Assembly (NCBI GenBank): GCA_937877605.1
Contig: CALFJA010000086.1
Coordinates: 4,384-68,383, forward strand
From: an uncultured Prevotellaceae bacterium
Lineage (GTDB): Bacteria > Bacteroidota > Bacteroidia > Bacteroidales > Bacteroidaceae
Direction: 5' to 3'
Length of the DNA: 64,000 nt
Positions within the stretch are counted from its first letter, which is position 1. The number at the start of each line of letters is the position of its first letter. Under the pieces are notes generated by a model. The model was not told the DNA's origin and searched no databases. It saw only the letters and a list, made by a program, of their open reading frames with translations. The translations under genes and the position numbers were made by a program. Below, piece after piece: positions 52,975 to 59,274 of the stretch.

Positions 52975-54276
52975 CTACAGGAAGGGTGCCAGAAGATGTG
53001 CAAACCATCCGACGAACTTTTTCCACGGCGTCCGCCAGCCGTTCCATGTTTCCTGTGTCAGCAGGAAACTGCGGTGCTTGTCACGCTCGAAGAGGGCATC
53101 CATCTCCGCCGTTGTCGACGGATCCACGACGATGACATTCTCCTCGTAGTCGAAGTTCAGGCTCCGTGCGTTGAGGTTGGCACTGCCAAGAGTGCAGAAC
53201 CTGCCGTCGACCATCATGATTTTCGTATGATGGAAACCCGGTTCAAACATCCAGACCTTGCACCCCCGCTTCATCAGTTGATGGGCATTATAGAAGCCGC
53301 AGTCGGGTGTCAGGGGGATATCGCTCTTCACCGACAGCATGATTTCCACTTTCACTCCTCTTTTCACAGCGCTGCGAAGCGCTTTTTTTATGCCGTGATT
53401 CAGGGTGAAGTATGGGTTGATGAGTTTGATGCTGTCCTGGGCCAGGTCGATGGCAGTAGTGTAGAACTTGCGTATGATTTTGTTGGTGACCGTGGGTTCC
53501 CTGTTGATGATGCCTATCATCTTCCTGCCAGCAGCGAGAGCGGTGTCTGCTGCGAGCATGGGCATATAGCGTTCGGGAGGACATCCGTAGTAGTATTGCG
53601 GTCCGTGAACATTCTGGTGCGTGACTTTATTCCATATTTTGAGGAATATTTTTTGCAGGGAGTTCACCTCGTCGCCCTCGATGCGGCAGTGCATATCGTG
53701 CCATTCGCCGACGACATCCGTACCGTTGATGTAGTAGTCGGCCACATTCATGCCTCCGGTATAGGCCACCTTGCCGTCGATGACGACTATCTTGCGGTGG
53801 TCGCGGGAGAAAGCGTGGTTGATCCAGGGGAAGCGCAGCGGGTCGAATTTCTTGATTTGTATGCCTCGCTGACGGATGAATTTCAGGTGTTTCCGCGTGA
53901 GCGGCTGGTTGTTCGATGCATTGCCGAAGGCATCGAACAACGCACGCACCTCCACGCCGGCGGCGGCACGCTCGGCCAGCAGGTCGAACAGCAGGCTGGC
54001 TATGGAGTCGTTCCTGAAGTTGAAATATTCCAGGTGTATGCTGTGACGGGCATTGCGGATGGCGAGGAAGAGGTCGTCGAACTTCTCCTGCCCCGACTCC
54101 AGCAGCACGATGGCATTGTTGCGTGAGAAAGTTACGCCCTCTCTTTCCATTGCTTCAACCAGCAACGAGTCGGAAGTCGGCTCCTGTGCCCGTACGGCAT
54201 TGCCTGCGAAGAGCGACAGGACAAGGAAGATGATGGTACAAAGGCGGTTCATTCTGCGAGGCATCAAATCATGCAT
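52975..54276 (-). CDS. cls: cardiolipin synthase (PLD superfamily)
   Basis: Two HKD motifs (DHRKIVVIDG and HHTKIMMVDG) and an N-terminal membrane/signal segment. Confidence 0.85.
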   Translation of the reverse strand: MHDLMPRRMNRLCTIIFLVLSLFAGNAVRAQEPTSDSLLVEAMEREGVTFSRNNAIVLLESGQEKFDDLFLAIRNARHSIHLEYFNFRNDSIASLLFDLLAERAAAGVEVRALFDAFGNASNNQPLTRKHLKFIRQRGIQIKKFDPLRFPWINHAFSRDHRKIVVIDGKVAYTGGMNVADYYINGTDVVGEWHDMHCRIEGDEVNSLQKIFLKIWNKVTHQNVHGPQYYYGCPPERYMPMLAADTALAAGRKMIGIINREPTVTNKIIRKFYTTAIDLAQDSIKLINPYFTLNHGIKKALRSAVKRGVKVEIMLSVKSDIPLTPDCGFYNAHQLMKRGCKVWMFEPGFHHTKIMMVDGRFCTLGSANLNARSLNFDYEENVIVVDPSTTAEMDALFERDKHRSFLLTQETWNGWRTPWKKFVGWFAHLLAPFL

Positions 54277-55247
54277 GAATAGTGGTCGACAATGCCCAGC
54301 AGATGTCTTTCCTTGTCCACTACGAGCACCGTATGGATTTTGTGACGGTGCATGATGCGTTGTATCTCTGTAATCTTGGTGTTCGGTGTAACGGTCTTGG
54401 GCTCCCGTGTCATGATGTCGCTGACGGTGTGGTCGAAGAACTTTGCCTGCCAGCGTTCCATGGCGCGGCGTATGTCACCGTCGGTGATGAGTCCCACCAC
54501 CCGACCGTCCTCCAGCGAAACGCCCAGTCCCAGTTTTCCTTTGCTCACCAGGATGATGGCCTCGCCCAGGTGCATGTCGGTGGGCACGATGGGAAGTTCG
54601 TCCGAGCGCATCACATCGGCCGCCGTGGTGAGCAGGCGCTTGCCAAGTTCACCGCCGGGATGGAACTGCGCGAAGTCCTTAGGCTTGAACTTCCGGAGCT
54701 GCATCAGTGCTATGGCCAGTGCATCGCCCATGGCCAGTGCTGCCGTGGTGCTGCTGGTGGGTGCCAGATTCAGCGGACAGGCTTCCTTCTTCACGCTTAC
54801 GGTGATATGGATGGTGCTGTATTTTGCCAGGAGCGACTTCGGGTTGCGCGTCATTGAGACGATGGGTATCTCCATCTGCTGAAGCATTGGCACAAATCGG
54901 AGCAGTTCGTCGGTCTGCCCCGAGTTGCTCAGTGCCAGCACCACATCCTCTTTTGTTATCACGCCGAGGTCACCGTGGAAGACATCCAGTGGATTGATGA
55001 AGAACGAGGGCGTGCCGGTGCTCGACAGCGTGGCGGCTATCTTCGCCCCCACATGCCCACTCTTGCCCACACCCGTGACGATAACTTTGCCATGGCAGCT
55101 GAAGATCAAATCGACAGCACGGTCGAAATTGTCATCCAACTGTGGTATCAGGTCGAGCAAGGCCTGTGCCTCGTCATGTAGACATTGTGCGGCAACCTCG
55201 CGAATGGCTGAAATATGATGGTCCATAAAGCGTTTCTCCTTATTCAA
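54264..55247 (-). CDS. kpsF: arabinose-5-phosphate isomerase (KpsF/GutQ family; SIS plus CBS pair)
   Basis: SIS motif GKVIVTGVGKSGHVGAKIA and a C-terminal CBS pair. Confidence 0.85.
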   Translation of the reverse strand: MNKEKRFMDHHISAIREVAAQCLHDEAQALLDLIPQLDDNFDRAVDLIFSCHGKVIVTGVGKSGHVGAKIAATLSSTGTPSFFINPLDVFHGDLGVITKEDVVLALSNSGQTDELLRFVPMLQQMEIPIVSMTRNPKSLLAKYSTIHITVSVKKEACPLNLAPTSSTTAALAMGDALAIALMQLRKFKPKDFAQFHPGGELGKRLLTTAADVMRSDELPIVPTDMHLGEAIILVSKGKLGLGVSLEDGRVVGLITDGDIRRAMERWQAKFFDHTVSDIMTREPKTVTPNTKITEIQRIMHRHKIHTVLVVDKERHLLGIVDHYSCMI

Positions 55248-55332
55248 TTTGAGAACTAATCATTCAACCTACAAAGGTACACAAAAGTTGCAAAAAAGCA
55301 ACTGAAAACGCCCCTGTTTTTCACTCGTTTTC

Positions 55333-55443
55333 CGTTTGGGGCCCATTCGCAATGTGTTTGGGGCCTAAATGGCTTGCGTTTGAAGCCCAAACGCATCGCG
55401 TTTAAGGCTCAATTGCAATCCGTTGGATTCCAACAGGTTGCAA
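55333..55443. repeat. REP-like palindromic intergenic element, copy 4 (inverted relative to copy 3)
   Basis: CCGTTTGGGGCCC, GTGTTTGGGGCC, GCGTTTGAAGCCCAAACGC and CCGTTGGATTCCAACAGGTTGCAA. The last unit is the reverse complement of the AACCTGTTGGTTTCCAACGG unit of copy 3. Confidence 0.8.
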
Positions 55444-55555
55444 AGGCAGTCCAGAACCCTCTGCCAAAGCGTCGTAAAAGGTTCTTTCAAGAGTGGTGAA
55501 AGGCATCTGTTTGAAAATAAACGAAGCAAAATGCGGCAGTTCCGAAAAAAACACT

Positions 55556-55563
55556 TAACTTTG
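55556..55563 (+). promoter_or_regulatory. candidate -7 promoter box TAACTTTG upstream of the structured leader and methyltransferase
   Basis: Matches TAnnTTTG. The predicted start of transcription, about 55568-55572, coincides with the base of hairpin 1. Confidence 0.4.
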
Positions 55564-55567
55564 TCTC

Positions 55568-55776
55568 ACGGATGCAGCACACGGCAAGCGAGCCCTGCAT
55601 CCGTCTTCGTGGAAAACTAACAAGCGTTTGCTGTTATTCGGAATACTTCAGAATTTAGCACATTCAAAGAGACAAAACCGAAAGAATAAGTTGCAGGCGC
55701 CTGTGCTATATAGCATGGGCGTGACTTATCCGGTTTTGTAGGCAAGTGCTAAAGCCTTGAAGTATGGATGAGAATA
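55568..55776 (+). ncRNA. candidate structured RNA / long 5' leader (10-bp hairpin plus a 142-nt rod-like hairpin with ~45 bp)
   Basis: Hairpin 1: 55568-55577 pairs with 55595-55604. The rod has six nested helices: 55635-39/55772-76, 55643-50/55758-65, 55655-61/55746-52, 55672-80/55731-39, 55686-91/55724-29 and 55698-707/55712-21. Two G.U pairs are compatible only with a plus-strand transcript. Confidence 0.35.
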
Positions 55777-55820
55777 TCGTTCATGCTTTTTTGTGCTTTG
55801 CATTAGCCTACCCTCCGACT

Positions 55821-55830
55821 GATAAGCATT
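55821..55830. repeat. 10-bp direct repeat GATAAGCATT, left copy
   Basis: An identical 10-mer recurs at 58300-58309. Together they bracket the methyltransferase-nuclease cassette and its terminator. Confidence 0.6.
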
Positions 55831-55851
55831 CGCCTAAAACCTATATGGCAC

Positions 55852-57042
<1,191 letters not shown>

Positions 57043-57114: not shown

Positions 57115-58236
57115 ATGAAAATAGAACTAAAGAAAGTAACTGTTGCAGAACTGACTGCAGGCTACGAAGATAACGAAGAAGCTGGTGTGCGTGGATATGG
57201 AGGACTGCTCGATATCCGACCACCTTACCAACGAGAGTTTATCTATGATGAAAAGAAACGCAATGCTGTGATTACCACCGTATTGAATGGCTTTCCACTA
57301 AATGTGATGTATTGGGCTGCAAGAGACAAAGATGCCGAGGTCCCATACGAAGTAATGGACGGACAGCAACGAACCATCAGCCTATGCCAGTATGTAAACG
57401 GCGACTTCGCCTATGATTTTCAATACTTTCATAATCTGACAGAGGTTGACAAGCGAAAGATTTTGGATTATGAATTGATGGTATATGTATGTTCAGGTAA
57501 TGACAAAGAAAAACTGAAATGGTTTGAAACCATTAACATCGCAGGCGAGCGACTCACCCGTCAAGAACTGCGTAATGCAGTGTATGCAGGTCCGTTCGTA
57601 AGCGATGCCAAGCGTTATTTCTCCAAGTCGAACTGCGCTGCCTACAACATGGGACACCATTTGTTGTCAGGCTCACCCATACGGCAAGACTATTTAGAAA
57701 CAGCCTTAAAATGGATGGCAAACTCCCTGAACAAGCCAAGTACCCCGATGAACATAGAAACCTATATGGCACAACACCAACATGATCCTAATGCGTCGCA
57801 GTTATGGCAATATTTCAATGCGGTGATAACATGGGTATTTGCCACTTTCGATGTAGGGAAACGCAAAAAAATCATGAAAGGCGTGGACTGGGGGACACTG
57901 TATGACCGGTTCCATGGTACCGTACTCGACAAAAGTTCACTTGATGCTGAAATAGGACGACTGGTTATTGACTCTGAAGTGCAGACTAAAATGGGTATCT
58001 GCCCCTTTGTCCTCACACGCGACGAGCACTATCTCGGTCTGCGTGCTTTCCCGGAAGACATTAAACTGGCAATCTATGAAAAGCAACAAGGAATCTGTCC
58101 GCTATGCGGCGAACATTTTGAAATAGATCAAATGGAAGGCGATCACATCACACCTTGGGCAGAGGGAGGCCGTACCGTAGAAGATAACTGCCAGATGCTC
58201 TGCCGCGACTGCAACCGCAGAAAAGGAAAGAAATAA
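57115..58236 (+). CDS. DUF262 (ParB/GmrSD N-terminal-like) domain protein with a C-terminal HNH nuclease motif
   Basis: DIRPPYQREFIY and MDGQQRTISL (the DGQQR signature of DUF262). C-terminal CPLCGEHFEIDQMEGDHITPWAEGGRTVEDNCQMLCRDCNRRKGKK is an HNH motif. Confidence 0.85.
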   Translation: MKIELKKVTVAELTAGYEDNEEAGVRGYGGLLDIRPPYQREFIYDEKKRNAVITTVLNGFPLNVMYWAARDKDAEVPYEVMDGQQRTISLCQYVNGDFAYDFQYFHNLTEVDKRKILDYELMVYVCSGNDKEKLKWFETINIAGERLTRQELRNAVYAGPFVSDAKRYFSKSNCAAYNMGHHLLSGSPIRQDYLETALKWMANSLNKPSTPMNIETYMAQHQHDPNASQLWQYFNAVITWVFATFDVGKRKKIMKGVDWGTLYDRFHGTVLDKSSLDAEIGRLVIDSEVQTKMGICPFVLTRDEHYLGLRAFPEDIKLAIYEKQQGICPLCGEHFEIDQMEGDHITPWAEGGRTVEDNCQMLCRDCNRRKGKK

Positions 58237-58255
58237 TTCCCATTACAATAAGAAA

Positions 58256-58287
58256 AAAGAGCGACTACATTGTTGTAATCGCTCTTT
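58256..58287. terminator. bidirectional hairpin between the DUF262-HNH gene and convergent atpG
   Basis: AAAGAGCGA-C-TACA, loop TTGT, TGTA-A-TCGCTCTTT. There is one mismatch, and A/T runs form the outer stem. Confidence 0.6.
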
Positions 58288-58299
58288 ATACAAGTAAAA

Positions 58300-58309
58300 G
58301 ATAAGCATT
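58300..58309. repeat. 10-bp direct repeat GATAAGCATT, right copy (abuts the atpG stop codon)
   Basis: Identical to 55821-55830. Confidence 0.6.
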
Positions 58310-59274
58310 TAATTGTTCACAGAACCGCCGACGATGTCGAGCAATTCGTTGGTGATGGCCTGCTGACGGCCCTTGTTGTACTGCAAGTTAAGTTGTCGCA
58401 GCAGTTCGTCGGCATTGTCGGTGGCCGTCTGCATGGCAACCATACGGGCAGCATGCTCGGAAGCGTTGCTGTCGAGCAGTGCCGTGTAGAGCATGAAGTG
58501 TCCCAGTTTGGGAATCAGTTGGCTCAGCACGGTGTTCATGTCTGGTTCAACCAGGAAGTTGTCGTTCAGCGGTTTGGCCTCAGCCTGCTCGTGCTGTTTG
58601 GCCGGCTTGCGGTTCTTAAGGTAGTCCTGGGCCTTCTTCGTCACGATGTTCGAAGTTAAATCGCGTTCACGATCGGCTTCCAGTTCCGACTGGACATCGA
58701 TGGGAAGGAAATCCTTGCGGGTGAGAATCTGGCTGCCTGCACTCTTGAAGTGGTGGTAGATGAGTTCCACCTTGTCAATTTTACCTTCCACGAATTGCAT
58801 GCCCAATTCCTGTGCAATGTCCATACACTGCTGGAAATTGGGATTGTCTGCCAGCGCAGCAAAGTCACCGGCTGCGGTGTAGCCCATTTTCTGGACTTTT
58901 TCAGCCACCTTACGCCCAATGGGATAAATCACGATGTTCTCACGGCCAAGCTGCTCGTATTCGGCAATGGCGTGAGTCATGAGTTTGATCACATTGGAAT
59001 TGTAGCCGCCACACAGGCTGCTGTTTGAACTGAAGACAACAAGTGCCACACGATGTACCTCTCGCTGCTGACTGAACACTGTCTGTGCATCGGCCTCCGA
59101 GGCAATGAAAGTCTTGAGGATGTGCTCCAGCATTGACTCATAGGGCAGCATGTTTTCTATCATGACCTGTGCATGGTGCAGTTTGCTGGAGGCAACCATC
59201 TTCATTGCACTCGTGATTTTACGGGTGCTATTGACACTTGCTATCCGGTTTTTAATTTCTTTGAGTGATGCCAT
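58309..59274 (-). CDS. atpG: F1 ATP synthase gamma subunit
   Basis: MASLKEIKNRIASVNSTRKITSAMKMVASSKL start and C-terminal ITNELLDIVGG. Confidence 0.93.
   Translation of the reverse strand: MASLKEIKNRIASVNSTRKITSAMKMVASSKLHHAQVMIENMLPYESMLEHILKTFIASEADAQTVFSQQREVHRVALVVFSSNSSLCGGYNSNVIKLMTHAIAEYEQLGRENIVIYPIGRKVAEKVQKMGYTAAGDFAALADNPNFQQCMDIAQELGMQFVEGKIDKVELIYHHFKSAGSQILTRKDFLPIDVQSELEADRERDLTSNIVTKKAQDYLKNRKPAKQHEQAEAKPLNDNFLVEPDMNTVLSQLIPKLGHFMLYTALLDSNASEHAARMVAMQTATDNADELLRQLNLQYNKGRQQAITNELLDIVGGSVNN

Follow-up and report, generated by a model that had tools for sequence, protein, structure and literature searches.

Restriction-modification systems call for careful expression, since their nuclease is potentially lethal to a cell with DNA that is not yet methylated, and the control known for such systems uses either a DNA-binding protein or an antisense transcript. 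Structured RNAs beside the gene of a harmful protein are found in type III toxin-antitoxin loci such as ToxIN, in which the toxin processes ToxI, an array of 36-nt repeats in tandem. We know of no earlier case in which a structured leader on the sense strand controls restriction-modification, and none was found in the literature searched. Here, we describe a leader at 55556-55855 of a 64,000-nucleotide window (the whole stretch of DNA that was analysed; contig CALFJA010000086.1, positions 4,384 to 68,383 of the forward strand) from an uncultured Prevotellaceae bacterium, in front of a two-gene cassette predicted to encode a DNA methyltransferase and a restriction endonuclease. The leader probably acts in cis as a multi-state switch of the restriction-modification operon, combining a choice between terminator and antiterminator with occlusion of the start codon in a portable promoter-plus-leader module. 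The RNA family itself is new; its working principle is known, and the setting is new.

Competing structures of the leader RNA

The plus strand of 55556-55851 folded at -105 kcal/mol, against a shuffle mean of -75.3 (z = -6.2), and none of 200 shuffles was as good; the minus strand gave z = -2.9. A previous sequence-only reading of this DNA, which had called for folding both strands, had taken a 142-nt rod hairpin as the structure of the region. That rod, here rod A, exists, but it is one of several competing structures, and the minimum free energy (MFE) fold of the full region differs from it. RNAfold on 55635-55776 returned its six helices and 4-nt apical loop with 48 pairs at -51.6 kcal/mol, the helix lengths being slightly off from those first given. 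A second rod, rod B (-71.8 kcal/mol; -49.0 for the same stretch on the minus strand), excludes rod A: the 5' half of rod B is the 3' half of rod A. The parts of the leader are, from 5' to 3':

55556-55563, plus strand: Bacteroidetes-type -7 promoter box TAACTTTG, read in the sequence
55568-55604, plus strand: P0, 5' hairpin domain with a 10-bp lower stem, a small GGC/GCC top and an AAGCGA loop
55618-55642, plus strand: segment a (TAACAAGCGTTTGCTGTTATTCGG), nearly invariant, which folds on itself (hairpin Pa, GUUU loop) or pairs with segment b or d
55638-55772, plus strand: rod A, the antiterminator form, with helices h1 (55638-40/55770-72), h2 (55643-51/55757-65), h3 (55654-61/55746-53), h4 (55672-80/55731-39) and b:c (55684-55706/55713-55730)
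55759-55794, plus strand: intrinsic terminator from a terminator scan, with a 13-bp hairpin (55759-55789) and a U-run (55789-55794); then TTTTTTG
55795-55811, plus strand: 3' arms of h8 and h7, which pair with 55738-55753 and lengthen the terminator hairpin after read-through
55814-55834, plus strand: segment d (CCTCCGACTGATAAGCATTCGCC), which pairs with c (rod B, State I) or with a (helix P1, State II)
55700-55855, plus strand: rod B (State I), comprising the helices e:b, c:d, h7 and h8 together with the hairpin of the terminator; its basal helix contains the start codon
55841-55855, plus strand: segment e with the start codon of the first cargo gene (ATG 55852-55854), part of the conserved module

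These elements follow a three-part layout, in which part 1 pairs with part 2 to give rod A, part 2 pairs with part 3 to give rod B, and the terminator stands at the hinge. The terminator hairpin is the tip of rod B. Bases 55759-55765 are common to the 3' arm of h2 (55757-65) and the 5' arm of the terminator (55759-71), so that a helix alternative to the terminator shares bases with the terminator stem, and both are conserved. Rod A is the predicted antiterminator because its basal helix h2 holds the 5' arm of the terminator. A terminator was present in all of the 72 homologues folded, with a stem of 10-15 bp and a median energy of -14.8 kcal/mol; the 8 nt after it contained a median of 5 U, in addition to 3 U in the stem. 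Its net gain over h2 had a median of -5.1 kcal/mol. Conversely, h2 was part of the MFE structure of the pre-terminator transcript in 72 out of 72, and at least eight sequence variants of it were perfectly matched by their partners.

A second choice concerns the RNA that reads through the terminator. Segment a (55624-42) resembles segment c (55713-30), and segment b (55684-706) resembles segment d (55814-34); because of these two likenesses the read-through RNA can fold in two ways. State I consists of a:b plus c:d (rod B), forms a rod of ~60 bp and has the start codon in its basal helix, where segment e pairs with 55701-55713. State II consists of the closing helix a:d and the hairpin b:c, which form a three-way junction with the extended terminator hairpin. 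In constrained folds of the 72 homologues, the median difference of State I minus State II was +0.8 kcal/mol (range -6 to +10), for totals of about -88, and the unconstrained MFE structure was one of the two states in 70 of them. The AUG was paired in 65 out of 71 homologues in State I and in 34 out of 71 in State II, there merely in a short local hairpin. RNAalifold favoured the State II arrangement, with the a:d helix paired in 63-73 of 74 sequences. The partner assigned to segment a depended on the method, being d in RNAalifold, b in the full-length window MFE and a itself, as Pa, in truncated transcripts.

Every element that the sequence-only reading had listed was recovered, besides rod A the TAACTTTG box at 55556-55563, the 10-bp hairpin with 10-nt arms (55568-77 and 55595-604) that are 100% complementary, the 12-nt palindrome TGCTATATAGCA (located at 55704-55715), the U.G and G.U wobble pairs at 55702.55717 and 55703.55716, the T6 run (55789-55794) and, at 55852, the ATG. 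Its argument from the wobble pairs for a plus-strand RNA holds family-wide, the plus strand being more stable than the minus strand in all 72 homologues (by a median of 15.8 kcal/mol) and ~12.5% of the pairs being G.U. It had overlooked the intrinsic terminator, the second and incompatible rod at 55700-55855 and the conservation of the whole unit elsewhere.

The two elements ahead of the switching core recur in the family. Of 74 homologous leaders, 71 have a TAnnTTTG box upstream, at a distance of 37-117 nt (mode 65) from GCGTTTGC, and the promoter box is invariant in one alignment (A2). The sequence of P0 is unrelated between loci, its pairing is kept, and it comprises one to three hairpins depending on the locus. 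Its commonest class (29 sequences) showed compensatory changes at 11 out of 11 consensus pairs, and the loop of the last P0 hairpin is AGCG or AGUG in 32 sequences. The promoter and the 10-bp hairpin are therefore genuine parts of the family, because both the box and the P0 pairing recur across homologues. The possibility that the 10-bp hairpin is an insertion and that a GACTTTNG motif is the real -7 box was considered and rejected, since nearly every homologue has a TAnnTTTG box and a covarying P0. No long-range pairing between P0 and the core was found.

Covariation in homologous leaders

Covariation over homologous loci, which the sequence-only reading had asked for, was analysed on two alignments: a MAFFT alignment of 74 sequences and a covariance-model alignment of an independent metagenome set with 82 distinct sequences. 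Compensatory changes are dense in the helices of both structures. On the MAFFT alignment, rod A was 87% paired, and h3 had changed on both sides in up to 32 of the 74 sequences; rod B had 79.9% of its cells paired, a value reached in none of 500 shuffles, and the terminator was 96% paired. Helix h2 was only 66% paired on this alignment, owing to a one-column offset in the ACTTCAG group that the covariance-model alignment resolves.

On the metagenome alignment, rod A had 92.3% of its cells paired and compensatory changes at 30 of its 50 pairs (474 cells), which 0 of 500 shuffles reached, and slid controls gave 33-46% pairing. Pairing was 95.7% for h2, 99.1% for h3 and 93.8% for h4. The alternative structure (terminator, h8 and h7) was 85.4% paired on the same alignment, with compensatory changes at 21 of 28 pairs and, again, no shuffle out of 500 as high. 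Over the two alignments, the terminator stem alone was 89-96% paired and carried compensatory changes. For h7 and h8 together, pairing was 76-87% with 11 of 14 pairs compensatory, and their partner columns also covary with the 5' arm of h3. Columns 130-147 thus covary with one partner in rod A and with another in the alternative structure, and two covarying partners for the same columns are the signature of a switch. Pair types drift through G.U intermediates; one pair, for example, was UG in 27 sequences, UA in 26 and CG in 21. The c:d helix was 98.5% paired yet invariant, and the columns of segment a are likewise invariant in alignment A1.

Distribution of the leader and its linkage to restriction-modification genes

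The leader is carried by well over a hundred rumen Prevotella-type genomes. An exact-pattern scan with one genome per species returned at least 119 places, ~78 of which were true homologues by BLAST and the rest (~40) chance 17-mers. A second scan of metagenome contigs with a different leader segment also returned at least 119 places, and a covariance model built from the first set made 90 matches in 89 of the first 100 metagenome contigs. The carriers, of rumen or gut origin, are recorded as Prevotella, Prevotellaceae, 'Bacteroidaceae', Bacteroidales and Alloprevotella metagenome-assembled genomes, mostly from cattle, sheep, goat, deer and yak. Contigs from rumen metagenomes and metatranscriptomes covered only 55618-55797 of the intergenic DNA; many of them were short with differing flanks, and one RNA run was among their sources.

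Three runs with single-organism labels (X19, X30 and X31, coded A and B) held up to 20% of the leader 31-mers and may represent cultured carriers. A match in Hoylesella shahii was rejected as a cultured carrier, being a chance 17-mer inside a gene. No leader match was obtained in plasmid, phage or IMG/VR viral contig collections. A search of 55540-55870 against Rfam 15, whose families include 6S, 6S-Flavo, Bacteroidales-1, riboswitches and T-box, gave only a 13-bit chance hit on the minus strand, even with E values up to 10 and lax filters. Literature text searches, which included exact sequence strings, and one paper on microbiome RNA motifs did not contain the leader.

In the window, the leader precedes the following two genes:

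55852-57042, plus strand: cargo gene 1, EcoRI-family N6-adenine DNA methyltransferase (Pfam PF13651, E = 5e-145; PADLOC MTase_II, E = 7.5e-121)
57115-58236, plus strand: cargo gene 2, type II restriction endonuclease with GmrSD_N (DUF262) and HNH domains (Pfam PF03235 and PF01844; PADLOC REase_II, full-length, E = 1.2e-121)

By these Pfam and PADLOC assignments, with the methyltransferase adjoining the endonuclease, the cassette is a type II restriction-modification system. The same arrangement prevails elsewhere. In ~60 of the 78 genome loci, a gene pair for an EcoRI-family methyltransferase and an HNH nuclease begins 11-60 nt after the leader in the same orientation, and in the metagenome loci the first gene is of the EcoRI-family methyltransferase type in 87 of 97. 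The downstream methyltransferases are 40-71% identical in amino acids to that of the window, and the nuclease homologues 35-85%. Leader nucleotide identity among the genome homologues is 73-88%, which exceeds the amino-acid identity of the methyltransferases, and the non-coding leader is therefore better conserved than its enzymes.

Behind the same leader, conserved through GCGTATGGC, ~13 genome loci carry other cargo:

Type II methyltransferase with a type IIG enzyme
N6/N4 methyltransferase with a type III Res subunit
HEAT-methyltransferase with a CfrBI-family nuclease
HKD(PLD)-SNF2 helicase-nucleases
TPR protein with a MazG-like protein

The GCGTATGGC stretch is retained even ahead of these unrelated genes (alignment A1). 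Since the conserved module spans it (window 55847-55856), the unrelated cargo proteins all start with Met-Ala (ATGGCA or ATGGCT), which points to exchange of cargo directly after the first two codons. No further gene, regulator, integrase or transposase recurs near the leader in these loci, and the cassettes occupy many unrelated contexts.

The leader was also seen in less usual company. At six loci (L141, L214, L209, L123, L101 and L205) it is followed by genes for secreted proteins or lipoproteins, which are not restriction-modification genes; these may be decayed cassettes, or the leader may have been taken over by other genes. Locus L205 also holds, at 341-508 of the minus strand in original coordinates, a second and far more diverged leader-like copy (47 bits), ~3 kb downstream of the standard leader on the same strand. 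This copy has its own TAAATTTG box and pairings recognisably like h2, h3 and b:c. The family therefore probably includes remoter members, and leaders may stand one after another. The window itself holds one leader copy by the leader covariance model.

The same distribution bears on the origin of the leader. The sequence-only reading had offered ancestral sequence from downstream of the atp operon as one option, with 10-bp direct repeats as possible insertion boundaries. This is refuted, as the leader moves with its cargo into unrelated contexts, and the nearest cassette-free relatives do not have it behind atpG: in the relatives closest by atpG (83% identity), ftsY follows that gene, the cassette is lacking and the leader model gives no match. 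No direct repeats of 8 nt or more are shared between 55230-55640 and 58200-58340 at the edges of the cassette.

Leader RNA in metatranscriptomes

Leader RNA is present in metatranscriptomes. At least 11 RNA-library runs share 31-mers with the leader, and leader contigs were found in all four of the rumen metatranscriptomes examined. In one of them (X14), a 228-nt contig starts 53 nt before the conserved core and ends at the equivalent of 55791, in the U-run; by arithmetic, its start lies ~5-6 nt downstream of the equivalent -7 box. Another RNA contig continues from the leader into the methyltransferase reading frame, and two of the four runs contained the leader without a matching coding region. 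This evidence is compatible with terminated and read-through RNA alike.

A model of leader function

Competing structures thus exist in the leader RNA; they are conserved and covarying, they belong to the plus strand, their terminator is conserved, and they are linked to restriction-modification genes. For the order of folding, the ON state, termination in vivo, the purpose of the leader and any trigger, we infer the following scheme. Transcription would start a few bases past the TAACTTTG box, and the variable hairpin P0 and the small hairpin Pa would be the earliest structures to form. Rod A would then zip from its tip through b:c, h4, h3 and h2. At this point the emerging 3' arm of the terminator could displace h2, halting transcription at the U-run and leaving a leader RNA of ~230 nt. 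Read-through would add h8, h7, d and e, and the RNA could then adopt State I or State II, which are nearly equal in energy. State I would bury the start codon at the foot of the rod, and State II would leave it free or in a short local hairpin.

The leader could in this manner gate the operon twice, at elongation into the methyltransferase-nuclease genes and then at their translation. The default would presumably lean to termination, and a likely role would be to keep the expression of a mobile and potentially lethal operon low regardless of where it is inserted. A factor or condition may act on the invariant segments a-d and shift the balance. Among the options of the sequence-only reading, the cis-regulatory leader is the one best supported, by the recurrence of the promoter, the covariation, the strand and the terminator, but nothing suggests that it controls the ratio of methyltransferase to nuclease, as had been supposed. 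It is the whole operon that would be gated, because the leader precedes the first gene, also where the cargo is a single gene or lacks a methyltransferase.

Several points weigh against this switching leader. Both termination and the identity of the ON state, and with it the direction of control, are only predicted. Covariation cannot separate Pa, a:b, a:d and c:d, because segments a-d are nearly invariant, and this invariance could equally reflect a bound protein or ligand. In the predicted folds, the two states differ only moderately in how far the start codon is exposed, and their near-equal energies come in part from the likeness of a to c and of b to d. No input that would choose between the folds was found: the upstream open reading frames (uORFs) are not conserved, Rfam yields neither an aptamer nor a T-box, and no recurrent regulator gene stands nearby. 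The metagenome alignment was fitted to the rod A model and so leans to rod A; it has no lean to the alternative structure, which still scores highly. Finally, the RNA evidence consists of unstranded assembled contigs, whose ends may be assembly artefacts and in which DNA contamination is possible.

The model may also be carried further. The leaders could represent a new class of portable RNA sensors that couple the defence operons of rumen Bacteroidales to a cellular or infection signal, through a factor binding segments a-d or through a change in transcription speed, with the chassis conserved and the cargos swapped after ATGGC. We regard this extension as possible but doubtful.

Alternative explanations

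A first alternative is that the terminated ~230-nt RNA, comprising P0, Pa, rod A and the terminator hairpin, is itself a functional small RNA with a role in trans or a dual role (for example by titrating a protein, by damping the nuclease or through an effect on incoming DNA or RNA), and that read-through is secondary. The strong and universally kept terminator speaks for it, as does the 228-nt contig, whose extent fits start to terminator; the stand-alone ncRNA of the sequence-only reading keeps this contig in its favour. Two of the four RNA runs, in which the leader lacks a matching coding region, point the same way, although the coding regions are too divergent for a fair comparison at 80% identity, and one RNA contig does span the leader into a coding region. 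The greater conservation of the leader than of its cargo would suit such an RNA, and the layout of ncRNA, terminator and potentially toxic gene recalls type III toxin-antitoxin loci; however, no ToxI-like tandem repeats are present, a search of 55200-55900 having returned no tandem repeats, only chance two-copy matches. The diversity of the cargo makes a partner specific to one protein unlikely, and with it the guide or antitoxin that had been suggested. The conserved and covarying part, moreover, extends past the terminator through h8, h7, d and e to the start codon, which a small RNA leaves unexplained. On balance, we consider this alternative unlikely.

Next comes a sharper version of the switching leader itself, in which it is a true sensor, working as a riboswitch or recognised by an RNA-binding protein or NusG-like factor. 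The binding site would consist of the invariant segments together with conserved internal-loop bases (UUCGGAAU, GAAU, GCC and CCUCC), binding would decide between antiterminator and terminator, and a cellular or phage-related signal would turn restriction on. Several stretches of 19-20 nt are identical across species, and conservation extends to bases left unpaired in the rod A internal loops. With energies so finely balanced (medians of 0.8 and 5.1 kcal/mol), a modest binding energy could be decisive, and Bacteroides capsule operons offer a precedent in their leader-specific NusG-like antiterminators. The invariance, however, is already explained by each segment pairing with two or three partners, and there is no match to a known aptamer or leader family. 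P0, the sole domain outside the switch, varies in architecture, and no regulator gene recurs beside the leader. A dedicated sensor of this kind seems unlikely.

Control by translation of a uORF, of the trp or tetQ type, is very unlikely. Here, a ribosome at the ATG of 55715 (M-G/D-V-T-Y) or of 55764 (M-D-E-N) would melt segment c or the arm of the terminator. The sequence that holds the two ATGs is conserved, the 55764 frame of the window ends at a TAA overlapping the main ATG, and translational attenuation is known for Bacteroides tetQ. The 55764 ATG, however, is missing at the expected place in 9 homologues (GTG, TTG or ATA where checked), and its frame ranges from 3 to 96 aa and ends in different frames. 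The length of the 55715 frame varies between 6 and more than 49 aa, and conservation ends with its sixth codon; RNA pairing fixes these six codons, and the Gly/Asp change is matched by covariation of the pairing partner. Conserved upstream reading frames at 55764 and 55715 were accordingly rejected, as start, length and frame are not conserved.

A role at the DNA level, as a recombination or integration site or a single-stranded DNA hairpin for the exchange of defence cassettes with only incidental RNA folds, is very unlikely: the constant leader with variable cargo joined right after ATGGC and the many unrelated contexts would fit it, but the strands are asymmetric (the G.U pairs are A.C mismatches on the other strand and weak in DNA), two mutually exclusive structures both covary, a promoter stands in front and a terminator inside, no integrase or transposase recurs nearby, the window has no flanking direct repeats, and the element is missing from phage, plasmid and viral collections.

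Genomic setting of the cassette

The leader lies in a gap of 604 nt between the cassette and a divergent neighbour:

54264-55247, minus strand: kpsF-like gene with SIS and CBS domains

The atp operon comes next after the cassette, on the minus strand. The G+C content of the cassette is 0.33-0.47, below that of its flanks at 0.50-0.62. No helix-turn-helix controller (C) gene was found, the methyltransferase and the nuclease being the only genes between the leader and atpG; C-boxes were not searched for.

The methyltransferase gene contains a long (AG)n dinucleotide tract at 56874-56909, encoding ...LEREREREREREREY..., which could be a slippage-prone contingency tract. In a near-identical contig (L001), the tract is three units shorter and the frame is retained. 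The C-terminal stretch with this tract is missing from most methyltransferase homologues (335-360 aa). Between the kpsF-like gene and the leader promoter, overlapping G+C-rich inverted repeats with GTTTGGGGCC-type arms cluster at 55320-55445; they have no counterpart in other runs or loci, and their contig depth is 0. At 58258-58290, where the nuclease and atpG genes converge, a hairpin flanked by A-rich and T-rich sequence (AAAAAAGAGCGACTACATTGTTGTAATCGCTCTTTAT) resembles a two-way terminator and drew weak chance Rfam hits.

Comparison with known systems

The leader is kept more strictly than its enzymes and is common to type II, type IIG, type III and helicase-nuclease systems. If the switching leader holds true, it would represent a previously undescribed regulation of restriction-modification and defence genes, a natural example of a bistable RNA with dense covariation for each state, and a useful marker for mobile defence cassettes in Bacteroidales metagenomes. 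It would also provide a concrete model of how a recombinase-free two-gene cassette carries its own context-independent control of expression.

The likeness to 6S RNA is mainly one of form: the leader, too, is a rod-shaped RNA of ~180 nt with internal loops, and its abundance suffices for it to show up in metatranscriptomes. An identity with 6S RNA or another housekeeping ncRNA was rejected, given that there is no Rfam 6S hit, that the leader is linked to restriction-modification and defence genes, and that the atpG regions searched in the nearest relatives do not contain it. The leaders of capsule operons controlled by UpxY (NusG-like) proteins, and the ops/JUMPstart elements with RfaH, are closer in setting, being long untranslated leaders of horizontally acquired operons, in Bacteroidales for the former, with premature termination as the control point. 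In our case, however, no upxY-like gene stands beside the leader, and dependence on a NusG paralogue is pure conjecture. In ToxIN, similarly, a structured ncRNA, a terminator and the gene of a harmful protein follow one another, and the terminator sets the ratio of RNA to protein. Unlike ToxI, the conserved RNA described here continues past the terminator to the start codon, and the first gene encodes a protective methyltransferase.

The task is probably the same as that of the known controls of restriction-modification, such as C proteins, autorepression by the methyltransferase, and the antisense RNAs of EcoRI and Eco29kI, namely limiting or timing a mobile and potentially lethal nuclease operon. 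The means differ: a structured leader on the sense strand stands before the first gene, it is common to several types of system, and no C gene accompanies it. With riboswitches, the leader shares a bistable cis-acting RNA upstream of genes, a terminator platform, possible occlusion of the start codon, and strong conservation of sequence and structure. It differs from them in having no recognisable aptamer, known ligand or Rfam 15 entry, and its conserved bases are those engaged in alternative pairing.

The working principle is that of attenuators (trp, pyr, RAT-type bgl/sac and T-box platforms), in which, as with h2, a leader helix shares bases with the 5' arm of the terminator and only one of the two can form. 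The trp leader offers the nearest parallel for segments a-d, which pair as 1:2 plus 3:4 or as 2:3 plus 1:4. Unlike attenuators, the leader has no conserved peptide, T-box or RAT sequence and no Rfam leader hit, and its antiterminator is a long and stable rod rather than a weak, protein-dependent hairpin. It also differs in adding a second layer, two iso-energetic full-length folds that involve the start codon, and in the genes that it would control, which are those of restriction-modification.

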